Positions 8,798-64,000 of a DNA stretch of 64,000 bases are shown piece after piece. Source of the stretch: Octopus vulgaris (taxonomy: Eukaryota); NCBI GenBank assembly GCA_951406725.2, contig OX597815.1:147126001-147190000 (forward strand), read 5' to 3'. Each line of letters opens with the position of its first letter. Within the stretch, counting starts at the first letter, position 1. The translations under genes were made by a program, and so were the position numbers. The notes below the pieces were generated by a model. That model searched no databases. It worked only from the letters and a program-made list of their open reading frames with translations, and was not told the DNA's origin.

Positions 8798-9977
8798 TAA
8801 TATAAACAGCAGATTGCAATATTTCACCAGGAGGGAGAATTACAAATGTCACTAAATGCGATTAGGGTATTAGGAAACGCCTACATTGCTAGAAATAAGA
8901 GCTAAACCACACTAATGCAAAAGTTAACGCGCATGAATGGAAACATATACACTAACAGGGAGCATTTATAGTTATAACAACAATGAATCTCGGATGGAAT
9001 TTATAATCATTAATTGCATCGCTACGCGCGTTTCCACAAATAACAAATCTCTTAACATCATAGTGTGTATTCATTGGATAACTTACTTAACCTTTATACT
9101 AGTAAATAGCAATAAATATCCCTCTGTTGTACGTCTATTGATGTGATATCGCCTAAAGAAATAAACCAATGAAGATGATCAACCACGGACTGCATTTTAA
9201 TCATAGCAGGAATACGGACAGTAATCTTAAAAAGCATTTGATTTGTGCTAACGCACTTAGCAATGCATTAAATATTTATGAATTCTATCAATTATTATTG
9301 TTATCATTATTATTTTTATGCTACAATATATCGGTACAGCTCGATGCAACTCGGAAAAACTGGTTCACCAGTCAGCGTCTTTAAACTATGACCAGCATAA
9401 TGATATAGGAGCTTCATTTACATATTCATATCATATTCATTACATAAACATTTCCAGCAAACACATTACTGTATCAACCAACGAATCGGATATGGTTATA
9501 CACCGCTAATCACAATGTCATTTCTAGCATTCTTTTAGATTTCGAATGATACCACCCCATAGACAAGACAGGCAGGTGTCAACATTCACCTTGTTCGAAA
9601 CGGTAGTTTGGTTCATGGTAGCCATTTATACCTGAGTGGACTGGAGAAACGAGAAATGAAATATTTTACTCAAAGATATAACGCAACTCTAGTCTGGGGA
9701 TCGAAACCACGATCTTACTATCGTTAATATCACACCTTAGGCCACGTATCTTCCCGCACGCCCTCGCGCACTCTAACACATACCTATATATACTGGATGA
9801 AAGGGATTATAATCCAGCTGTCTCCACATGGGGAACATCTTTGTATTCCAGGTATGAATTGAATGTATGTAAATGTTTTTATTTTTAAACTAAAAAAGCC
9901 ATTGATACTAGATAAATTTACTCGTAAATTATATTTTCAGAATATGTATTAAAAGAGAGACTGGGGCATGTTGTACC

Positions 9978-20153: not shown

Positions 20154-23135
20154 TTAAGTCAAGTTTTGTTCAAGTAGTGAGTTCTTGTTGGGTGAGTTGT
20201 ATCCAATTATGGGTGGCTTGTCTGGTATTCTTTGAAGGAATCCATCCAGACTCTGTTTGAAGTTGATGGGATCCTTTTCCTCTTTGATCTCCCTCGGGAC
20301 AATGTTAAATAGGGCAGGGCCTGTTGAGGAAAAGAAATTATGTTGCAGTGTACATGTATGTTGTGATCTTGAATTTGGCAGGGGACGTATAGCCCGTGGT
20401 CCAAGTCTCGGATGAACCTTGAAGCTAATGTTTAGGTCGTTTGGGCAAAGTTGGCGGTATATTTTCCACATCGTACAAATGATGTACCGCTCACGGCGAC
20501 GCTGGAGGGAGTAAAGTTTCAAGGCTTTAAGGCGATCCCAATAGTCGAGAGCAGCCATGCCTTCAATTTGTTTAGTGAGAGCCCTCTGGGGTGACTCAAT
20601 TCTGGAGATGTTTTGTCTTGTGTGAGGAGACCACAGTGGGCAGCAGTATTCAAGGTGTGGCCGTACAAAGGATGAAAAAAGTGGTATGATGACACCTTGT
20701 TCTCTGGACCGGAAAGTTCTTAAGATCCAGGAACTCATCCTACGAGCTGTATCGACCTTCTTGTTGATGTGTGCACTCCAACTGAGATCGTCATCAACAA
20801 TTACACCCAGGTCTCTGATATTGTTAGAGGCTGTGAGCGGTTCCCCTGAAGGAAGAGAGTATGGTTGTTTTAGTGAGGAATTTCTTCCAAAATGCATCAG
20901 CTCAAATTTTCCCTCATTCAGTTGCATTTTGTTTCTGTCTGCCCATTGACTCACAGCATATAGGTCAGACTGGAGTTGAGTTCGGTCTGCTTCTTCATTG
21001 ACGATTTGCTGGAGCTTAGTGTCATCAGCGAATATTTTCACTTTGCAGTGATGTACGACACTGGAAAGGTCGTTTACATAAATTATGAAGAGTAGCGGAC
21101 CCAAAACAGTTCCCTGGGGAACACCGCTGGTGACTTTTGCTGGGTTTGAGTGGACTCCATCAACTACAACATGTTGTGTTCTATTCGCTAGGAAATACTG
21201 AATCCAGTGTAGAACTTTTCCACGGATTCCAACATTTGCCAATTTTGAGAGTAGGATGTTATGGTCTACCCTGTCGAACGCTTTACTGAAGTCAAGGTAT
21301 ATGACGTCAGAGTTCGAACCTGTTCCCAAGGCTTTGAGTACATCTTCAATGTGGTGTAAGAGCTGTGTTAGACAGTCCCTGCCACAGCGAAAGCCATGTT
21401 GATTTGAATTTAGGAGTTTGTGGGTCTCCAGGAAGTCAGCTATCCTTGATCTTAACACTCTTTCAAACACTTTAATGATGTGGGAGGTGAGTGAGATTGG
21501 GCGATAGTTGACTGCGAGGGATCTGTTTCCCTGTTTGAAAACCGGGATGACCGACTGGGATAGAAACTTATTCGGTATATAACCTGCGTCTAATGAGTTT
21601 CTCCAGAGGTTGGTCAGAGGGACTGCAAGTTGATATCTACATTCCTTCAGGAGACTGGCGGGAAATCTATCAGGGCCTACAGCGGAGTAATGTTTGACCT
21701 CATTTATTGCTGCTATGATGTCGGTGGCAGTGAAGGTTATGTCTGCGATTTTGTGTTGGGAGTCAGCTTCGTTCGTTTCCCTCACATCAATATCAGTGGG
21801 AACACTGAAGACAGAGCAATATTGTTTCTGCAGTATTTCTGCCATTTCTTTAGCATCGTGTTGGGGAATGCCGTTTTCATCAATCAATGGCCCAATAGGT
21901 GAGACAGTGGTTCTATGCTTATTTGCATAAGAATAGAACACTTTTGGGTTCTGTTTGATGTTTTTGATTACCCATTGTTCCTCCACAGCTCTTTGATTTT
22001 CAATGGAGGTTTTCATGTTAGTCTGCAGATGAAGTTTTTCCAGCTCTAGTCTTTTCATTGTTGTTGAATGTGGATGTTGCGTGTGGGAATATTTTAATTG
22101 GTTGATTTTTTTGTTGAGTCTTTTGATGCGCCTGATGAGTGTTTTTTTCTTTTTAGGGAGCCGGTTTCTGTTTGTGTTAGTAGATTTCTTGGGAGCGTGT
22201 TTAGAGCATGTGTCGGTGACAATGGTTTCAAAGTGCTGCCACGCGGTCTCAATATGAGGGGAATTGAGAGTAAAAGACCAGTCGATGGAAGACAGATCCT
22301 TTCTGATTGTTCCCCAGTCCGCTTTGTGGAAATTTATGTTGTCAAATGGGTGCCATGGAGTGGGATTGGCTGGTTTGGTTTTTATACGTCGGGAATTAAG
22401 ATTGCAGAGTACCATGTCGTGGTCTGAGAGGAGAGTTTTTTCGACTGAAATGCTGTGAACGTAGCTAGAGTGATTGGTCAGTACCAGATCCAAGATCGTT
22501 TTATTCTGTCTCGTTGGTTCAAGCACTAGCTGAGTCAGGAAATACTCATCCATCAGATTAAAGAGCAGTTCTGCTGCTGCCCTATCTGATGTAGAGCACT
22601 TGCCTAACTTCGGAGTATTTGTGGGCCAGTTCACATGAGGGAGGTTAAAATCACCCATCACTATTATGTTTCCGGAGTGGTACTTCCGAAGGAAGGACTT
22701 GACTTTGCTAAGGCACTCTTCAAAGTACTTTAGAGGTGCCTGGGGAGGCCTGTAAAGACCAACAATGGTTATGTCCTTGGCTTTGTTGTATACTGATACC
22801 GATTCACAGTAGCCATTGGAAAATGTGTCCTTGGCATCAAGTGAAAAGGAGTCGTGGATAAAGATGGCTGTCCCTCCCTTATTTCGGTCTGTGCGATCCG
22901 CACGAACAATGGTGAAATCTTTTATTTTCACCTCTGCGTCCATATGGGTGTTGTTCAGGTGAGTCTCGGTAAGGATAAAGAAAGGGAAGCAATGTGCCAT
23001 TTCGGCAAGCCAACTCTCTATATATGGGATCTTCCATTTTTGGGCAATAATTGATGGGTTGATGCCACGTACATTTAACAGGAATGTCGAGGTAAGGGAA
23101 GTTGGTAATGGGTGAGTGGTCCTTGTGATTTGCAT
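20154..23135 (-). CDS. LINE ORF2: apurinic-type endonuclease + reverse transcriptase (993 aa)
   Basis: APE: NVRG, LTETH, GLYRPP, GDFN, LDLV, SDH; RT: NYRPISLTS, QHGFR, YLDFSKAFD, SGVPQGTVLGP, FADD, DLGV; C-terminal LYSLQRRRER; no internal stops. Confidence 0.96.
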   Translation of the reverse strand: MQITRTTHPLPTSLTSTFLLNVRGINPSIIAQKWKIPYIESWLAEMAHCFPFFILTETHLNNTHMDAEVKIKDFTIVRADRTDRNKGGTAIFIHDSFSLDAKDTFSNGYCESVSVYNKAKDITIVGLYRPPQAPLKYFEECLSKVKSFLRKYHSGNIIVMGDFNLPHVNWPTNTPKLGKCSTSDRAAAELLFNLMDEYFLTQLVLEPTRQNKTILDLVLTNHSSYVHSISVEKTLLSDHDMVLCNLNSRRIKTKPANPTPWHPFDNINFHKADWGTIRKDLSSIDWSFTLNSPHIETAWQHFETIVTDTCSKHAPKKSTNTNRNRLPKKKKTLIRRIKRLNKKINQLKYSHTQHPHSTTMKRLELEKLHLQTNMKTSIENQRAVEEQWVIKNIKQNPKVFYSYANKHRTTVSPIGPLIDENGIPQHDAKEMAEILQKQYCSVFSVPTDIDVRETNEADSQHKIADITFTATDIIAAINEVKHYSAVGPDRFPASLLKECRYQLAVPLTNLWRNSLDAGYIPNKFLSQSVIPVFKQGNRSLAVNYRPISLTSHIIKVFERVLRSRIADFLETHKLLNSNQHGFRCGRDCLTQLLHHIEDVLKALGTGSNSDVIYLDFSKAFDRVDHNILLSKLANVGIRGKVLHWIQYFLANRTQHVVVDGVHSNPAKVTSGVPQGTVLGPLLFIIYVNDLSSVVHHCKVKIFADDTKLQQIVNEEADRTQLQSDLYAVSQWADRNKMQLNEGKFELMHFGRNSSLKQPYSLPSGEPLTASNNIRDLGVIVDDDLSWSAHINKKVDTARRMSSWILRTFRSREQGVIIPLFSSFVRPHLEYCCPLWSPHTRQNISRIESPQRALTKQIEGMAALDYWDRLKALKLYSLQRRRERYIICTMWKIYRQLCPNDLNISFKVHPRLGPRAIRPLPNSRSQHTCTLQHNFFSSTGPALFNIVPREIKEEKDPINFKQSLDGFLQRIPDKPPIIGYNSPNKNSLLEQNLT

Positions 23136-24346
23136 AGATGGTTGGTGATGGCTCGCTGGATCTCCTGGCTTAGGTCGGCCTTCATATTTTCCAGGTATGT
23201 CAGTAAAAAAGAGTTACTTGTTTGGTTTGCCACTTGGTCAGAGGATACATATTTCAAGTTGGCGTTATTTGGTGTTTTTTCCTGGTTCTGTCTACGTAGT
23301 TTGATTGTAGGAGGGGAAACGTGGTTGTATTTTGTTCTTGTTGTTGTCCTAGATTTCCTCTGTTCCTGTTCATATCTATTCTGTGATCGTTTTGTGCCCT
23401 TCAGATGGTGGTTGTTGCATTCTGGGTTCAGGCACATCCTTTGTGAGACAGAAGTTTGGCACAGTTTAGGATGGAATAAGGTGCATCTATTGCCTCTTAT
23501 GCATCCGTATTTAGGGTCAGAACCATAGATTCTGTATTTAGGACAGTATTTGGGGTGGAGGTGGGGGCAATTTTTTCCTGTTATACCGTATGGACATGTG
23601 CCCATAGCAAGTCTACGACATAAGGTCGGGTGGGGAAAAGCACAGCGTCCATTTTTGTTTGTGCCGCTGGGGCCAAATCTACAAGTGCCTTTAGAATAGT
23701 AACGGCAGGGGGTTTTATTTGGTTGTAGTAGTGGTTTTTCTATTTTGGCAGTAGTAGTAGTGGTGGTGGTGGTGGTGGTGTTAGAAGCAGCTTGTTGATT
23801 TTGTGATGGTGGGTTCTGGCTTGCCAGTATGTGGTCAAATCTGCAGCTGCCTTGAGAGTAGTAGTGGCAGATGGTTTTACGCGGATGTAGTAGTGGTTTT
23901 CCTATTGTGGCAGTAGTGGGGTGTTGTAGCAGCATTGGAACTTGACTAGTGGTAGTATTAGAGTGTTGTTGTTGTTGTTTTTGTTGCTGTAGCGAAGGTG
24001 AGACTTGACTTGGTTCATCAGGTGCTGTTGTCAATGGAAGTAGGTCAGTTGATTGTTGCTGTTGAAGTGACCACTGACCTGTTGGGATTTGGTCATTTGT
24101 TGTACTGGATTCGTTGGCAAGAATGGCTTTTAGTGTAGCCATGTGCGCGTGAAAAATAGGGAATATCCTAACAATTTCTTTTAATTTATTTTCTATCTGT
24201 TTTACAGATCTGTGAAAGGATTTTTTCGTTAAATCCTCAGTTATTTTGCTATAAACATTAGCTTCGTTTTGATGGATGAACCAAGCGTTAATCATTGCAG
24301 TAATTTCATTTTCAACCCAGCGGCGTTTTTGAAAATTATTGGCCAT
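23075..24346 (-). CDS. LINE ORF1 (423 aa from first ATG): trihelix/Myb-like N-terminus, Q/T-rich linker, tandem CCCH-type zinc fingers
   Basis: RRWVENEITAMINAW..VYSKITEDL..SFHRSVKQIENKLK; CRYYSKGTC..C.FPH, CRRLAMGTC..CPHLH, CPKY..C..CTLFH, CQTS..C..CNNHH. Confidence 0.85.
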   Translation of the reverse strand: MANNFQKRRWVENEITAMINAWFIHQNEANVYSKITEDLTKKSFHRSVKQIENKLKEIVRIFPIFHAHMATLKAILANESSTTNDQIPTGQWSLQQQQSTDLLPLTTAPDEPSQVSPSLQQQKQQQQHSNTTTSQVPMLLQHPTTATIGKPLLHPRKTICHYYSQGSCRFDHILASQNPPSQNQQAASNTTTTTTTTTTAKIEKPLLQPNKTPCRYYSKGTCRFGPSGTNKNGRCAFPHPTLCRRLAMGTCPYGITGKNCPHLHPKYCPKYRIYGSDPKYGCIRGNRCTLFHPKLCQTSVSQRMCLNPECNNHHLKGTKRSQNRYEQEQRKSRTTTRTKYNHVSPPTIKLRRQNQEKTPNNANLKYVSSDQVANQTSNSFLLTYLENMKADLSQEIQRAITNHLCKSQGPLTHYQLPLPRHSC

Positions 24347-25059
24347 ATTCAGTGGGGTAGTGTTGTCTAATATATATATGTATGTATGTGTATGCGTGTG
24401 TATGTATGTGTACACCAGTTATTGATGGCTTGATGTAAAATAGTGAACACACTGTTGAAAAGTTTGTGTCGATATACTCGGTAAATAGTGAATACACCGT
24501 TGGAAAGTTTGTGTCGATATACTCGGAAATTCGTGGCTTGTGTGTGTGAGAGTTCAGTGTAATTAGTACAATCTAATTTAATTAGTACAATCGGGATGAG
24601 CGGTGTGTTTGATACAGACCAAGAAAAAAGAATTGTACTCACGGGACTAGTTTTAGAACTAGTCTTGGGTTTAGTATTTAGTTTTGGGTTCCTCTTTCTT
24701 CAGGTTGTATATAGATTTGTATAAATTTATCCTCCGATGGTAGTAAAAGAGTAGTATAGTAGGATTGTAGAGTTCAAAAGTCTTGAGATTAAAGACAAGG
24801 AGAGATTATGTTAGCTTGAGTTGAGTTGAGTTGAGTTAAATTGAGTTGAAAAATGCTTCTTTGGTTAGTTACTGACTGGAGCTATAGAAAGTACGTCTTG
24901 TCACGACGACTGCCTGACTGGCTATATCAGCATATATCAGCCTGACTGGCATACATTCCTTTTATACTTAAATACTTTTAATGGTTTCAGTCTCATGACT
25001 GTAGCCATGCTGGAGTACCCCCTCAATTTATTTCCTTTCAGTTTTGTTGTGTTATAGGT

Positions 25060-25260: not shown

Positions 25261-25733
25261 TCAAAAAATGACTGATAAAGATTTTGAAGTCACTGTCGAC
25301 GTTGGTTTTTGTGTATAAAATTAATATATATATATGTAAATTCTATTTGAATTCCTTGAGTTATCTCACAGTAAATATTTAATTTGGTTTTATACAACTA
25401 AGTACATAACCAGCAAGTTACATATGTCTGTGCTTATACGTGTATGTTTGAGTTGGGGGTACGTGTGTACGCTCACTCGAAAGAGAGCAGGTCCTGCAAA
25501 TAACATTTGTAGGTATTTTACAAATGTCTTCACTTTTGTGCGCTGAAGCCGAAAATAACTCTGCAGTTAATAAATTTCAGCTGCTAATTTACCGGTTCGT
25601 GTTATTTAAATATTAAATAATGAGAGTAGAAATTGATATTAATCAATTAAAACAATCACACATCATAACGATTGTCTCTTTCGGTTGAGTGTTCTGTGTC
25701 TAGTTCTGGAAATTGTGTTTTGTAAGCGACAGA

Positions 25734-25798
25734 CTACACTGATGAGCTTGTAGATATTTACATACGTAAATACTAACAAGTGAAATCAGGGTATGTAG
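25734..25798 (+). ncRNA. Type I hammerhead ribozyme, canonical core
   Basis: CTACA-CTGATGA-GCTTGT(..TATTTAC ATAC GTAAATA..)ACAAGT-GAA-ATCAGGGT-A-TGTAG; GUA site. Confidence 0.8.
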
Positions 25799-34759: not shown

Positions 34760-35336
34760 GTTAACTGATACACAACCAAACCACGCTCCCATACGCATAC
34801 AGAGGCTCAGAAAATTTAAAGTTTACCCATTCATTTATTTTTACACATTGTTAAACACATACGCTCACTTGCGCACCGCTGTTCGACCGGCTCAATGCTA
34901 TGCCTCCTTCATGGGAAACCGATAGTTCCGTCAACATATTGCTCTCATCGTCTTATCATTCTCTCTCCAAATTTTCCCCTCTCCCTCTTTGCTACAGAGG
35001 GTCGGCTCGAAACGTGAAAGACTTTTCCAAACATCCCATACCGCCAAACTTATACACCTACTATTTACTCCCTCACATGCCTTTGTATTTTGTTTTCTGT
35101 ACATATGAACCATATATGTACACACACACACAGACACACACACATATCAAACATCAAGATAAAGGGGAGATCAAAATTGTCATTGTCCCCATAAGAACTG
35201 CAGAGTAAAACCCATACCTAGACTTAAATCACGCTCACGTATCCATCAGAAATAGATGTTTCCTTTTTTTAAACATTTATTTTCAAAGTTGATTTCCCTT
35301 GTCCTCTCTCATGTATATATATATATATGTGTGTGT

Positions 35337-35630
35337 GGAGGCACAATGGCCCAGTGATTAGGGCTGCGGACTCGCGGTCGTAGGATAACGGTTTCGATTC
35401 CCAGACCGGGCGTTGTGAGTGTTTATTGAGCGAAAACACCTAAAGCTCCAGGAGGCTCCGGCAGGGGGTGGTGGTGATCCCTGCTGTACTCTTTCGCCAC
35501 AACTTTCTCTCAATCTTTCTTCTGTGTGCCTGCCCGCTTAGCCAGCTGGGTGGCGTCATTTAAAGGCTAAAACAATGCGAAGCGCATTGTGACCAGCGAT
35601 GTGTAGCAACATCTGATAGCCTGGTCGGTG
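35337..35630 (+). mobile_element. tRNA-derived SINE (third family)
   Basis: A box TGGCCCAGTGA, B box GTTTCGATTCC, anticodon-arm-like GGACTCGCGGTC, unrelated 3' body. Confidence 0.75.
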
Positions 35631-35656
35631 AAAGATAAAAGATGATATATATATAT

Positions 35657-36036
35657 ATTAATTGTTATCACCATATTAATATGGCATTCTTATAGATATA
35701 AGAATAATCGCTGCCGCTGGTCAGCTCCATGAGGCCACCGCCTTAAGATAGCTATTGATACACGATCTGTATCCATTATAACCTTCGAACAAGGGAGGTC
35801 AGCCGCTTCACACTGCCAGTCCGACAGCTACAGACGCGTTTCGGGGTATTGCCCCTTGTCAATGTAGCGCAGTCAGACCCCGCAGGTGTCGCCACTGACG
35901 TCTCTGTTCGAAGGTTTCTATTTACCTAGTTTCTTATATCTATAAGAATGCCATATTAATATGGTGATAACAATTAATTTCCAGTAAACGCTGCCGTAAT
36001 CTCTTTTATAGAGACTTAGTAATTTTAATATTTCTA

Positions 36037-36038
<2 letters not shown>
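35657..36038. mobile_element. Hammerhead-containing element with nested inverted repeats in (TA)n (Penelope pLTR/retrozyme-like)
   Basis: Perfect 48-bp IR 35657-35704/35931-35978; inner IR 35780-35791/35905-35916; TA tracts on both sides. Confidence 0.7.
35827..35868 (-). ncRNA. Minimal type I hammerhead ribozyme, U3-A8 variant core
   Basis: GCTACA-TTGACAA-GGGG(CAATA)CCCC-GAA-ACGCGT-C-TGTAGC; all helices perfect, GUC site. Confidence 0.82.
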
Positions 36039-36091
<53 letters not shown>

Positions 36092-37026
36092 CATACCAGT
36101 GCGACTCCGTCGCACACGCTGTTCGACCTTAGCCTGAGTACAAATTTAGCGAAGTGGACGTATATTTGCAAGCTGATTTAATTTCTGCCAACTTCAAGTA
36201 TGTAATTGCGACCAACAGCTAGAGCTCCTTTTATTGAGTCTGGTGACAGTTCATTTATTTTCGTTTAGCGTCTTGTGGCCGTCTTAGACGTGTCCTTTGT
36301 CAAAAAATATCACTTGTAGCAGACGTTCTCTCGACATTTTTCACACGCACCGTGTTGTTATCTATAATCGTAAACATTAAAATTAATTCAAATTCAATTT
36401 TATCTTGAAACAATACATTTCTATAGAGATTAGGATTTAAATTCAAATTCATGGTAATTTTCCTTTCTACAATATTCTTAAAAGATACGAACACTTATCT
36501 AGCAACTGGAACTAATAAAAATGAGCCTGGTAGGTGCAAAAGACTGACTGGAATCCATTGTCACGTGTACAAGCGACAATCAGATCCCTGATATTTGTTG
36601 TGCACTCTATCGTTATTTGATAGCTATTATTCTGTGCATCAGAGCGTAAATATCGGTTGATTTACAGGGGTGCTTTATTTTTATCCTCAACTTACAAATG
36701 GAGAAAGACATAGTGCTATATATAAAAAAATAAACCATTTGGAGCTAGAAATAAAGCGGAAAAACTTGAAATTCATTGAGCAGGCTTGTGTCTTATGCGA
36801 AATCTGTGATGAGTCAAGTGACGAAATCTGTCACAAGCCATGTTACCTGGAATTTAAGGGTAAGGTATATTTCACATTATAGTAATCGAAGCAAAAGTAA
36901 GGTTTTCAACGGTGCTTACTTCCGTAAAGCGGAACAACTAAACAATATTTTGTCTGTAGGCACAGTTTGAACAAAAGAATACTCAGGTGTATATATATAT
37001 ATATACATTCTCTCACATGCAGGCGT

Positions 37027-37995: not shown

Positions 37996-38006
37996 TTTTA
38001 TAAAAT

Positions 38007-38482
38007 AAAGAATGGAGTTGAACGACAAATTAACAAATTTCCTTTATTTTCGACATATGTTTCGAAGGCTGCATATTCCTAATTGTGATGGAATAAGGGG
38101 TACATTATGCCGCTTTCTCATCAGGAAAAACAAGGAATTTATGTCAACATCAAGATTCACAAATACTTTTAGATGACTGCTCTCACGGAGCGCATAGCGG
38201 TAATGAGTGTCTCTTTAATAATGTACTCCTTATTCCTTCACAATTAGGAATATGCAGCCTTCGAAACATATGTCGAAAATAAAGGAAATTTGTTAATTTG
38301 TCATTCAACTCCATTCTTTCGTTTATTCATAAATTTTATAAAAATACACACAAATTTCCACGCGAAAACACGTAGTCTCTGCCCTAGGCACGTAACTTCA
38401 ACCGTGTTATTTCTGATGTGAATTTGCTACCCAGGTATCGGTTAAACGAATTATCCATAAAAAGATATTTCATTTTTCTACT

Positions 38483-38485: not shown

Positions 38486-38531
<46 letters not shown>

Positions 38532-41571: not shown

Positions 41572-42000
41572 TAAGTTTCAGCCAGTATGGGTCCAGGCTA
41601 TGTCTGACTTATTAGCACCACCTGGCATAGTCATTTAAATCAGGAATCAGACAACATGGACCACTCAAGGAGAGAGTTATTGTTTACAGATATATCCGGG
41701 ATTTTTAAAGCGATTTGTCCAAAGACTTATTGAATTTTAAGGGGTCTGTTTCTGCTGTAATGTATTTTAGTTAAATGTTGGAGAACGCAGTGCTAATTGA
41801 GGTGAAATAATTGTGGTGTATTGTGTGGTGCGAGTATGATTTTATATTGTAGGCGGATAGTACGGGGTTCAGGTCTTGGGTGTATCTTAAAGGTGAGGCC
41901 TACAACATCTGGGCAAAGCTAATGGAATATTTTCCACATCATGCAGATGATGTAGCGTTCACGGCAGCGGCGTTGGAGAGAATAAAGCTTGAGGTTTTCT
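41572..42000 (-). mobile_element. 5'-truncated relative of the 20-25 kb LINE
   Basis: LKLYSLQRRCRERYIICMMWKIF..LTFKIHPR and a conserved 3' UTR block GGTGGTGCTA.TAAGT.AGACAT.GCCTGGACC. Confidence 0.88.
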
Positions 42001-42049: not shown

Positions 42050-42113
<64 letters not shown>

Positions 42114-42118
<5 letters not shown>

Positions 42119-42775
42119 TTAATGTAGGATAAAATTTTTTCGGAAAAAATTTTTTTTATCAATGGCCAGCATATTAAAAAATACCTTTAAAGGTTAAAAT
42201 TATAAATCACTTATAAATAAGGGCAAACGAAAAAAATTCTAATGCCAAATATGCCGAAATTGGAACTATTGTCCGTAACCATGTAATTTTTCTCAATATG
42301 CACGTTACTCGAAAAAAGGCCGACAGAAATTTCTAAAACATTCCATTATTACCATATCAGACCGATTTCAGGGTTAGTTCGTAAGAACCCTCCCTTCGTC
42401 AGTGATAAATGTGGCAAAAGAAATAAATGAGATACTTACTAATACCCATGGAAGAAGCAAAACACTAAGTCATGAGCACAATTAAGTACTCCAAATACGT
42501 CCCAAATAGAAATACTCCAGCCCATTCAAGACAGGTGCGATTTGAACTGAGGCTCTCACAGAGTGAGAGTGTCCGGAAGTGAACACTTAAATTTATATTT
42601 AATGTAGGATAAAACTTTTTCTAAAAAAAATTTTATCAATGGTCACCATATTAAAAAATACCTTTAAAGGTTAAAATTATAAACAACTTATAAATAAGGG
42701 GAAACGAAAAAAAATGCCAAATATGCCGAAATTGGAGCTATTGTCCATAATCAAATAATTTTTCACAATATATGC

Positions 42776-53205: not shown

Positions 53206-54639
53206 CAGTTGCGGCCAAAATATTCAGAAAGGCATTGTTTTCGTCAGAAAAGTAAGTATAAGTTTTTATCAAAGTAGTTTTATATTCTATAATTTTCACA
53301 GATAATACATACAATGTAAATTGTTATTGTCTGAGATTTCGGTGTAATTTGAGGGGATAATATAAAAGTTATGAAACATTTAGTGATTCACTGCAAAACC
53401 CAAGGCGGCCAAAATGATCAGAACGGTTGAAAAAATAATAAAATAATCATAAATGACAGAGAATACTGGAATTATTTAATATTTAGTGTGAAGCCCTTTA
53501 GCTTCAATCACACTTTGACTTCTTCGACTGCATGAGGAAATTAAATTTTCAATTTCTTGCTGGTTGATCTTATTCCATTCTTCCTGAAGGGCATTCCATA
53601 ATTGCGCAGTAATTTTAGGATTTCTGGCTTTCGAACGTTCTCCTAGAATATTCCATACGTTTTCAATAGGATTGAGATCTGGGCTTTGAGCAGGCCAATC
53701 CATAACAATAACCTTTTCAGCCTTGAGGAAGTTCATGACCACCTTAGCCTTGTGACATGGGGCATTTTCCTGCATGGATATGGGTGGTCGCTTAGTTGAA
53801 TTTCTCAGCACAGGCAAGACATGATCTTTTACAAGTTGTTTATAAACTCCTGCATTTACCTTTCCATGTAATCGCCCCAAAGGGCCCACACCATCTCCAG
53901 ATATCATCCCCCAAACCATGACACTTCCTCCATCGAATTTAACACTAGTCTTAAGGCATTTAGGCGACAATTTTTCACCTACTTTTCTACGAAGGTACCT
54001 TTTCCCATCAGAGCCAAATAACATAAACTTAGATTCATCACTGAAATGCACCGTTTGCCATTTTTCTTGAGACCACAACACATGTTCGGTTGCAAAGGTA
54101 AGACGACACTTTTTATTCTTGGAGCTGATCAGTGGCTTCACTGCAGGTGCTCTTGCTTGTAGGTCATGTTCAACTAAACGATGAGACACAGTTTTTCGAG
54201 ATAAAGTTTTCTTCACTACGATGCTCATTTTCCGAGAAACGGCAGCAGCAGTTTTAAATCTGTCCTTTTTAACCAACTTTACCATAGCACGATCTTCTCT
54301 CTTGGTCGTTTTTCTTGGCCTACCTGTAAACTTTCTTGCTTCACACGAACCATACAATCTTCGTAGACCTTAAGAATACCGTGTACAACACTTTTTGACT
54401 TGTTAACAATCTTTGCAATAGATCAAGTACTTAAATTATCCTTCCTTCGAAGCTTAATAATCTGCTGACGAATTGGTAACGGAGTAAGTGGCATTATATT
54501 AACAAAGTACACTGCAAATATTCTTACTAATGTTTAGTAAACGTACCGTCACATAAACAAATTCAAAACATTAGAGTTCGCCGGTTCAATATACTAAAAC
54601 ACGGAGTAAAAGCAACCGTTCTGATCATTTTGGCCGCCA

Positions 54640-61862: not shown

Positions 61863-62399
61863 TTACCAATAACTTTTTCTAGAAATGCAAAGATTGAAGT
61901 ACCAACAAAGCAGCAGTAACTAAAATGTAAAAAACAAGACCCGCATGATGATAACTTTGATTCCAAACGCCTCATCTTGATTTTAATTTGACCCAGAGCT
62001 TCAGTTACATTATAGACGAGATTGCGAAAAGTCATACCAGATAACTTCATCAGCACAAAATCTGGGAATATTCATATTAAAGATTCCCAACACCTGCATA
62101 CACATCATTTACAATATGTTGGAGGTGGACGGGACTTCTGCCAAGCTGAATTCTTTCCACAGAATAATCTTACTTCTACTCTGTTGTAATCTATCTATAA
62201 ATTTGTTTTGGTAAGTATTGACGTATAAATTTATAAAAGCGTTCATTAGAAAACTTTCCTTATTTCTCTAACGATAAGTAATTTACGTTTATATTTTCGT
62301 TTTCCAAGATTCTTGATGTGAATTCGTATGTTGAAACCAATATTGTTGTATTTGGGGGCGGTCATGCTGCCAGTTTAGACAACGTAGACACACGCACTG

Positions 62400-64000
62400 T
62401 TTCAGCTTTATTTCATATTTATTGTATTTCGGCCGGAGTTCTTTCGCCGCATTTCTGTGATCTCATCAGTGGTCCTTTGCTTTCTTCTTTCTTTTGTGTC
62501 TTTCCTTCCTAACAATTTGCCATTTTGCATTCCTGTTGTTTTTGACTTTATTTGCGCATGCGTATATCCCTGTATATGTCTATATATAAGTGTGTGTGGT
62601 GGGGTGTATGGTACTTGCATGATCAGTATCTCCTGTCTATTCACGTTCCATTAATTTACTTTTATTTGTTATATTCATTAGATTTTATCTACTTAAATTT
62701 TCATTTCTTTCTTTTTTTTATTAATTTAATTTAATTTATTATATTTTGTTTATGTATATAATTATTTAATGCTATATATTTATCTGTCTATTATTGTATT
62801 AGTTTCATATTATTATTAGTTTATGGGGATCGTATTCTGTCATAGGTTGTGGTGTGTGTGTGTGGGGGGTGATAGTGTTCCATTTTAGTTTTTCTATTTA
62901 GTCTATGTTTTTTCTTTTATTATGTGTGTAGCTTCAGTAAATTTTCTTAGCGTTGTGTCCGTACTATGTGTGGACAAAATTTTAAATTCTGTTGTTGAGC
63001 CCTCATTCCAGCTCGGCACGTTGGTATAGAACAGCTGAGCTCTTCTCTTCCTTAAGTTCCCTCCAATGCTCATTTACACGTTCTTCTATGCTCCGTGCTG
63101 TCTTCCCTGCGTACTTTGTTGTCTTGTTCCTGCACCGTCCCTCTGTACATCTTATACTATAGACTACACTCCGAGCTTTATAGTTTGTTTGTGGGCTAAA
63201 TCTACATACAATACAGTTCTTATCAGTACAGGGGTTTCTATTAAAAGGGTAGGTTCTACCGATTAGCGATGTGATAGGGTTACCTGTCTTTTCTACAACC
63301 TTAACTCTTAGCCTAAGCTTGTCTAGGGCCCTTCTAAAGCGATACGCTGGTTCGCCTCTAGGGGTTGTTTCGACGAACATGACACTTTTTATTTGTGGGT
63401 ATTATAACATGAGTTGGACTTCTCTGTTTTCTTCTTAGTCCTTTCAATAGTATTTCAGGACTTGCTCCTATAAAATGAGCAAATCCCATTCCTATCATTA
63501 TGTATGTTGGCTTCAAATCTCCTCATGACTCTTTTATATACTGTAATCATTTCTCTATGACAGTATTCTGATAACTGCATGCGGTGAACGAAGTGTTGTA
63601 TGTGTCTATTTAACTCTGTAGGATCGCACATGTGCGACACATATCTCATTACTCTGATGAGGTCTGCCATCAATATATTGAATTTGCCATTGTTCCCGAA
63701 CCTAAGTTCCGGTGGATCAGGTATTTGGAGGCCATAGGTTTGGCATAGAGTGAATAGCGGATTTAGGTTTTACTATTCACTGTTTCCAGCCAGAGTTCTA
63801 TATCTGGTACTGGTAGTCTATGGTTAGCGTGCTTTGTAGTGTAGTCAATCGTCACCTTAATACTTTGGGGGATGGAATTAGCTATTTGCTGGATGCTCTC
63901 CATAGTATTAGTTTCTCTTTCTATTTCAAGGTTACTCTCTTGTGGGGGATTTCCTTTACCACTGTGTTAATATCATCGACATAACGAGAGTACATGTGCA
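62400..64000 (-). mobile_element. Decayed Penelope-like retroelement (RT, Cys linker, C-terminal GIY-YIG; Naiad/Neptune-like), truncated by the window edge
   Basis: YSRYVDDI at 63968-63991, IANSI..IKVTIDY..RLP, YAKPMAS, FVETTP.GE, VKVVEKTG, CTDKNCIVC, VVYSIRC..YAGKTARS..RVNEH; stops and frameshifts; 3' boundary approximate. Confidence 0.88.
62431..62475 (-). ncRNA. Hammerhead motif at the 3' end of the Penelope-like element (core intact, stems eroded)
   Basis: GGACCA-CTGATGA-GATCACA(GAAA)TGCGGC-GAA-AGAACT-C-CGGCC. Confidence 0.55.

Follow-up and report, generated by a model that had tools for sequence, protein, structure and literature searches.

The 64-kb stretch of Octopus vulgaris DNA analysed here, called the window below, is microsatellite-rich animal DNA with 31-44% GC in most 2-kb bins, and it holds LINE, Tc1-type and Penelope-like remnants. 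Runs of (TA)n make up 2.9% of it. Between two such runs lies a short element with two nested inverted repeats and a hammerhead ribozyme motif. The features of this element, together with those of a Penelope-like element (PLE) found farther along the window, are as follows.

35645..35658, unstranded: left (TA)n target at the end of a SINE-like element, placed by sequence and by the drop in family depth
35657..35933, minus strand: main insertion body, 277 nt of a ~364-nt unit, with the hammerhead sense on the minus strand
End of the 35657..35933 body, minus strand: putative priming site 1 (AUUAAU)
35657..35704, minus strand: left outer arm, the 3' 48 nt of the body, with two local hairpins (repeat search and fold)
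35705..35779, minus strand: variable branched segment, with many variants between copies (placed also by the fold of the modelled unit)
35780..35916, minus strand: 137-nt imperfect rod, an extended helix I with 48 predicted pairs and the 12-bp inner repeat as its closing stem
35868..35827, minus strand: type I hammerhead motif of 42 nt, with core UUGACAA (U3-A8), GAAA and a GUC triplet; predicted cut 35833/35832
35931..35933, unstranded: TTC microhomology of 3 nt where the inverted part joins, at the base of a near-perfect 18-nt palindrome (35931-35948)
35931..35978, plus strand: right outer arm, the 48 nt of the left arm again in inverted form (repeat search)
35979..36039, plus strand: 61-nt tail, present at just one end and belonging to the family unit by family depth, ending at putative priming site 2
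36040..36085, unstranded: right (TA)n target, from the sequence
62300..64000, minus strand: decayed Penelope-like element, with an RT carrying YVDD, a CX4CXXC linker and, at the C-terminus, a GIY-YIG

The outer inverted repeat (35657-35704 / 35931-35978) is perfect over exactly 48 bp and contains the CCATATTAATATGG palindrome, read from the sequence, just as the original prediction had described it. The inner repeat, for which at least 12 bp had been claimed, is perfect over exactly 12 bp (35780-35791 / 35905-35916). Folding of the whole stretch that carries the element gave a z of -15.3, and folding of the inner 137 nt gave a z of -7.4. The hammerhead had been placed at the centre of the palindrome; this is true of the inner repeat, in which it is centred (35848), but not of the outer repeat, whose centre is 30 nt away. 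Between the inner and outer stems lie spacers of 75 and 14 nt. These unequal spacers and the off-centre hammerhead thus indicate a 137-nt rod, a branched junction and a 48-bp stem, rather than one continuous rod. A fold-back assembly artefact was considered and rejected, since beyond the right arm comes family sequence that the left end lacks, followed by a flank unlike the left one.

The 42-nt motif has a helix I of 6 bp, a helix II of 4 bp with a CAAUA loop and a palindromic helix III (ACGCGU), and at the descriptor level its core boxes (UUGACAA, GAAA and GUC), which lie between helices I and II and include the 3-8 pair, A15.1-U16.1 and an NUH triplet, are those of a type I hammerhead. A strict hammerhead descriptor matched once in the window and in none of 200 block-wise dinucleotide shuffles, and the descriptor scan found the hammerhead on only one polarity of the stretch. 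Rfam returned no hammerhead in the window at the gathering threshold, and with E values of up to 10 it gave 11 weak matches in 35200-36500, none of them over 35740-35975. The perfect U3-A8 hammerhead of the original prediction therefore stands as a motif, given the shuffles, but its helices are not all paired. In the monomer, helix III amounts to 2 bp with a 2-nt loop and has predicted pair probabilities of 0.0; the five helix I and helix II pairs that were tested have predicted probabilities of 0.89-1.0. For two 42-mers, the lowest-energy fold is a double hammerhead that shares a 6-bp helix III, and in the modelled dimer, enforcing this shared helix costs 6.9 kcal/mol relative to the unconstrained fold, which counts against the retrozyme reading given below. 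The lone copy of the window is predicted to cut poorly by itself.

The U3-A8 pair is a known natural core variant (PMC4209133), and a C3G/G8C swap gave only partial rescue (PMC11167929); our literature search found no measurement on a natural U3-A8 hammerhead. The word "minimal", which had been applied to the motif, does not suit it. The minimal hammerheads of PLEs are described as having a helix II of 7-8 bp with an extra preceding nucleotide and a helix I of 4-5 bp (PMC4209133). Here, helix II has 4 bp without a bulge and helix I has 6 bp, a canonical type I geometry rather than the PLE form described in that source. U3-A8 covariation is likewise found in the hammerheads of the Schistosoma mansoni PLE Cercyon, with ~1,300 matches there, but these are minimal, with a 7-8-bp helix II and without a real helix III (PMC4209133).

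Within the window, blastn and local alignment found no second copy of the element. Two candidate resemblances were rejected: an old copy at 9475-9604, because 27 of 60 shuffled queries scored equally high, and a shared-looking motif at 41870-41990, which is a 72% match to the LINE at 20386-20519.

The search for further copies, which the original prediction had named as its own test, had a positive outcome in public sequencing data, where 20 of the 24 runs listed, from 10 studies and under 4 organism labels, contain the stretch. Coverage and contigs were examined in four of these 24 runs, X1, X6, X12 and X15. None of the 24 is on record as RNA; X12 and X15 are RNA by guess only, and X1 and X6 are apparently DNA, with 867 and 506 contigs mapping to the stretch, respectively. 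Summed depth in X1 was ~1e4-3e5 across 35650-36039, compared with 8-30 for apparently single-locus contigs, and it dropped from 21,664 in the bin at 35650-35664 to 42 in the left-flank bin at 35620-35634. The tail (35979-36039) showed the highest depth of the stretch in both X1 (up to 315,623) and X6, and the element therefore spans from (TA)n to (TA)n, at 35657-36039. As a rough inference there are thousands of genomic copies, to an order of magnitude only, as depth is not copy number. Pattern scans of metagenome contigs, viral contigs and prokaryote genomes gave no matches.

With overlaps of 30 nt each, three contigs of X12 (contigs 10, 9 and 14, of 270, 95 and 89 nt) join into a cycle of 364 nt, which consists of the 277-nt body, the 61-nt tail and a 26-nt linker; the depth of this cycle is 2-4, and its link from contig 9 to contig 14 was deduced from lengths. 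Contigs 9 and 10 cover the main body (35657..35933) with 1 and 3 differing letters, respectively, and contig 14 continues from the arm into the tail. In X1 and X6, the loose ends behind 35933 show the letters with which the linker begins, and an opposite-strand joint at 35934/36004 (depth 17.9, side 36) is present in X15. These loose ends and the X15 joint mean that the head-to-tail junction exists in DNA-sized runs. The window copy itself is a lone monomer, and the contig cycle could also come from tandem DNA.

The unit thus delimited is 364 nt long, has 43% GC over the 338 nt present in the window and carries no ORF of at least 120 aa. Modelled without the outer repeat, it folds with a z of -7.1 over 338 nt, and CGGCAGCG of the branched segment is predicted in this fold to pair with CGCUGCCG of the tail. 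The inner 137-nt rod, as an extended helix I, belongs to the unit. The window copy differs from the 364-nt cycle at about 4 of 338 sites, in keeping with the recent formation that had been proposed for it, and an abundant family with head-to-tail junctions and a 364-nt cycle bears out its description as retrozyme-like.

Contigs of other make-up were also seen. Some in X12, X15 and X6 have the branched segment and the tail in common (35720-35809, 35987-36039) before they continue as other sequence (X12 records 11 and 15). Related hammerheads occur in two long contigs of X12, of 1011 and 2302 nt. All these contigs hint at sub-families, at derivatives that lack the rod or at copies within longer transcripts.

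Variation between copies was compared with the position of the hammerhead. None of the 33 listed variant places falls on the 13 hammerhead core places that were checked. The 42-nt motif has 2 variant places and the adjoining 47 nt have 11 (Fisher p 0.016); set against the rest of the element (2/42 versus 31/279), the difference is not significant (p 0.28). Among 17 variants in the rod, 4 leave a pair intact, 6 lie at unpaired positions and 7 would, each on its own, disrupt a pair. Reading loose ends by eye, we found other palindromes in helix III, ACUAGU in X6 and ACGU in X12, and the U3-A8 pair in both X12 variants with a visible core. An X12 5' strand and an X6 3' strand, which come from different contigs and have five diagnostic letters in common, would give a helix I with two compensatory changes.

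The family and the window copy part at a single point. In the family, 35933 is followed by the linker, which leads to the tail; in the window copy it is followed by the inverted arm and the tail. The window copy is thus a 277-nt body joined to an inverted 109-nt unit end (48-bp arm and 61-nt tail; 35931-36039). The four listed contigs that reach the junction from the left stop at 35932-35933, and loose ends at this point show family linker. As it is this linker and not a second arm that comes after 35933 in the family, the 48-bp stem is likely a by-product of insertion.

This bears on two readings in which the 48-bp repeat belongs to the element itself. Perfect arms, a TG...CA within an ATTAAT boundary and an AT-rich target would suit a MITE that has terminal inverted repeats of 42-48 bp and has picked up a hammerhead. 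Yet the family extends 61 nt past the right arm, at its highest depth, its neighbour at 35933 is linker rather than arm, and the inversion junction is not spanned by any of the 32 pieces listed (out of 1,426), so that shared terminal inverted repeats were not found among them. The MITE is therefore largely refuted, and we give it hardly any credence. The other reading, an endogenised viroid-like RNA with a long rod closed by the 48-bp stem as its functional form, draws on the very stable fold and on the 137-nt rod tipped with a hammerhead. It is extremely improbable in our judgement, given that the hammerhead is present in one polarity only and is predicted to be exposed rather than sequestered, that the outer stem lies outside the family unit and that DNA-sized runs under several organism labels hold the family in abundance. 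The long viroid-like rod that had been envisaged is likewise not supported as the functional form, since the outer stem is not in the unit.

A rare allele is informative about how the two arms arose. Both arms carry it, as T at 35965 mirrored by A at 35670, at a site where the family reads C (110,383 of 110,801 X1 depth, and all depth in X6, X12 and X15); the allele of the arms accounts for 0.4% of X1 depth and for none in X6, X12 and X15. A rare allele common to both arms points to one template molecule or source copy. It would seldom be expected from two independent insertions, and this weighs against a history in which a plain monomer came first and the inverted arm and tail were added later, through a second insertion or a template switch of replication at the hairpin. 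Such a history would explain why the junction lies at a hairpin and has 3 nt of microhomology, and PLEs do tend to land beside earlier copies (PMC6765202). However, a template switch on the left arm cannot supply the 61-nt tail, which is missing at the left end, and we consider the two-step history very improbable.

Insertion in a single event, as in PLEs, gives a better account of the ends. X15 holds a second body-to-arm inverted junction with the same arm start, from 35799 to 35932 (side 45, depth 2.8); body-to-tail joints were also seen in X1 at 35778, 35821 and 35869, but with sides of 21-27 letters these were flagged as unreliable. In the window copy, an inverted 5'-truncated copy (35931-36039) yields flanking inverted repeats, and (TA)n lies on both sides of the element, within which a target-site duplication is unreadable. 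PLE insertions have been described with an inverted 5'-truncated copy, a tail at one end and a bias for (TA)n (PMC8557442), and palindromes occur at the inverted junctions of rotifer PLEs (PMC3846280). With the purified PLE protein of an anole, nicking and extension take place on both strands at ATT, and there are two internal start sites, the tail being the stretch between them (PMC11167929). The octopus copy thus resembles the insertions described in these three sources in its inverted 5'-truncated copy at the 5' end, its one-end tail, its junction palindrome, its AT-rich (TA)n target and the two putative start sites that bound the tail. It differs from them in having no ORF, a canonical hammerhead and a one-sided tail of 61 nt rather than the 30-40 bp described for PLEs.

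An autonomous PLE would leave similar ends, and the locus might accordingly be read as the 5'-truncated end (pLTR) of such an element, with the inversion and tail arising likewise. PLE insertions are mostly 5'-truncated and have the same inverted end and tail (PMC8557442, PMC3846280), the X12 contigs of 1011 and 2302 nt hold their related hammerheads amid other sequence, and X1 depth is 12-17 thousand over the 5' strand of the rod (35875-35934) compared with ~250 thousand over the hammerhead. This lower depth over 35875-35934 could reflect truncation or divergence. We nonetheless regard an autonomous PLE as unlikely. The unit closes through a linker of 26 nt, which is too short for an ORF, in the X12 cycle, the X1 and X6 loose ends and the X15 joint alike, and the canonical 6-bp/4-bp geometry of the hammerhead is one that the available accounts assign to tandem repeats rather than to the PLE minimal form (PMC4209133, PMC7229834).

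The class that the unit fits best on the tests run is that of the animal non-LTR retrozymes (Cervera and de la Pena 2020, PMC7229834). These are described as non-coding units that span 150-450 bp, have <50% GC and carry a single canonical type I hammerhead; they occur as head-to-tail copies in thousands per genome and include a mussel family of 350-390 bp. The octopus unit is like them in size, GC, lack of an ORF, single hammerhead, tandem form and copy number, and also in a hammerhead that is free to fold in the monomer and has a weak palindromic helix III. It is unlike them in its U3-A8 core and in a helix I grown to a 48-pair rod. The inverted end, the tail and the (TA)n target of the octopus copy go unmentioned for animal retrozymes in the available text of PMC7229834, which has no match for "inverted", "microsatellite" or "cephalop". 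Judged by its sequence, the octopus unit likely belongs to this class, and its RNA may be circular.

Taken together, our findings make it probable that the locus is a dispersed copy of an abundant ~364-nt repeat that likely acts as a non-LTR retrozyme, a non-autonomous parasite of PLEs, and that its 48-bp repeat was likely built at insertion. Direct support comes from the anatomy, the abundance, the head-to-tail junction in DNA and the shared rare allele; for the remainder of the cycle we infer cleavage, circles, PLE enzymes and two-site priming.

Such a retrozyme would need a helper, and candidate helpers exist in the genome. The PLE remnant at the end of the window has a CX4CXXC linker of the Neptune/Nematis type, and its fragment at 63006-63401 (minus strand) is 71% identical to an 803-aa Octopus vulgaris RT-domain protein (P0001; 2 matches among 137 candidates). 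Its GIY-YIG match (E 0.0013) is below Pfam's cut-off. Sequence comparison within the window found no similarity between the retrozyme unit and this remnant, which therefore represents a candidate helper class only: it indicates that candidate helpers exist, not that its own family is the helper. Hammerhead core boxes were also noted in the remnant at 62440-62475, ~550 nt beyond the ORF, with decayed stems (z -0.3).

In the cycle that we propose for the retrozyme, head-to-tail copies would be transcribed, and paired hammerheads would join through the palindromic helix III, cut after GUC and release monomers, which would then be ligated into circles. A PLE RT/GIY-YIG protein would nick both strands of a (TA)n tract, and reverse transcription would be primed at two internal AU-rich sites in the RNA, 61 nt apart. 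From site 1, the cDNA would copy 277 nt through the intact hammerhead; from site 2, it would copy 109 nt, comprising the tail and the arm. The two cDNAs would join in head-to-head orientation at the TTC microhomology, next to the hairpin, and the product would be a body with an inverted arm and a tail at one end only. Because the 277-nt cDNA crosses the scissile bond, this would require a template that is circular or uncut. Hammerhead cleavage is dispensable for insertion of the anole PLE (PMC11167929), and the template thus need not be a cut or circular RNA. The scenario in full, a cephalopod retrozyme with a circular, hammerhead-processed RNA that a Neptune-type PLE copies from both (TA)n strands at two fixed sites, making a new inverted end and tail at each landing, is tentative, and we hold it to be possible rather than probable. 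If true, the locus would be a direct genomic footprint that links the circles of a retrozyme with the enzymes of PLEs, and the family concerned would retain a U3-A8 core while the sequence of its palindromic helix III varies.

That retrozymes are non-autonomous PLEs is already in print (PMC7229834; bioRxiv 10.64898/2026.07.22.740005), with the case for which enzyme spreads them still resting on co-occurrence and, in frogs, on pLTR homology (PMC7229834, PMC7761336, bioRxiv 10.64898/2026.07.22.740005). The bioRxiv study reaches the same conclusion as ours about the helper and likewise finds dispersed monomers to be common. It differs in its evidence: the available text relies on co-occurrence and on the homology of pLTRs in Xenopus, and neither molluscs nor inversions nor tails enter into it. 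Our literature search, which covered the text of papers, found no cephalopod retrozyme, though one may be listed in supplements or in repeat libraries such as Repbase/Dfam. In the available text of a 2026 repeat annotation of O. vulgaris (PMC13282606), there are no matches for hammerhead, ribozyme or retrozyme. The family is thus likely a cephalopod addition to the known retrozymes, the concept itself not being new. The locus is useful as a structural footprint of the mobilisation of a retrozyme by PLEs, and with thousands of junctions from a non-coding family with PLE-type ends, priming sites and the form of the template can be mapped computationally.

Several other elements in the window were noted in passing. 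The retrozyme lies antisense in the terminal (TA)n of the SINE-like element (~35338-35644, plus strand), in which stretches resembling an A-box and a B-box lie at 35347 and 35390. A search of the window with ARAGORN gave no tRNA, and a bacterial promoter scan was at chance level (3 versus 2.7), its bacterial model being irrelevant to animal DNA. An inverted element at 38000-38326 has 109-bp arms of 95% identity, 109 nt apart, with ~160 nt more on one side up to a (TA)n at 38486. Its arm has a stretch of GAAA, palindrome and UC, in which a search for the hammerhead 5' core box found none; the element is possibly another PLE-type inverted insertion. A second hammerhead-like motif, at 42355-42410 (minus strand), has the usual C3-G8 core and a weak fold (z -1.8). 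It lies between (TA)n-flanked direct repeats of ~180 bp and 87% identity (42108-42299, 42600-42771), and this region looks like an old partial tandem of PLE pLTRs. The relaxed descriptor alone gave a loose hammerhead-like match at 25733-25798 (plus strand), with a canonical core and a 36-nt helix II region, which may be due to chance. A Tc1/mariner-type transposase ORF of 297 aa lies at 53476-54369 (minus strand). Finally, an apparently intact two-ORF LINE occupies 20154-24418 (minus strand), with one ORF of 447 aa that has Myb-like and CCCH zinc-finger matches and another that encodes a 1019-aa endonuclease-RT without stops.
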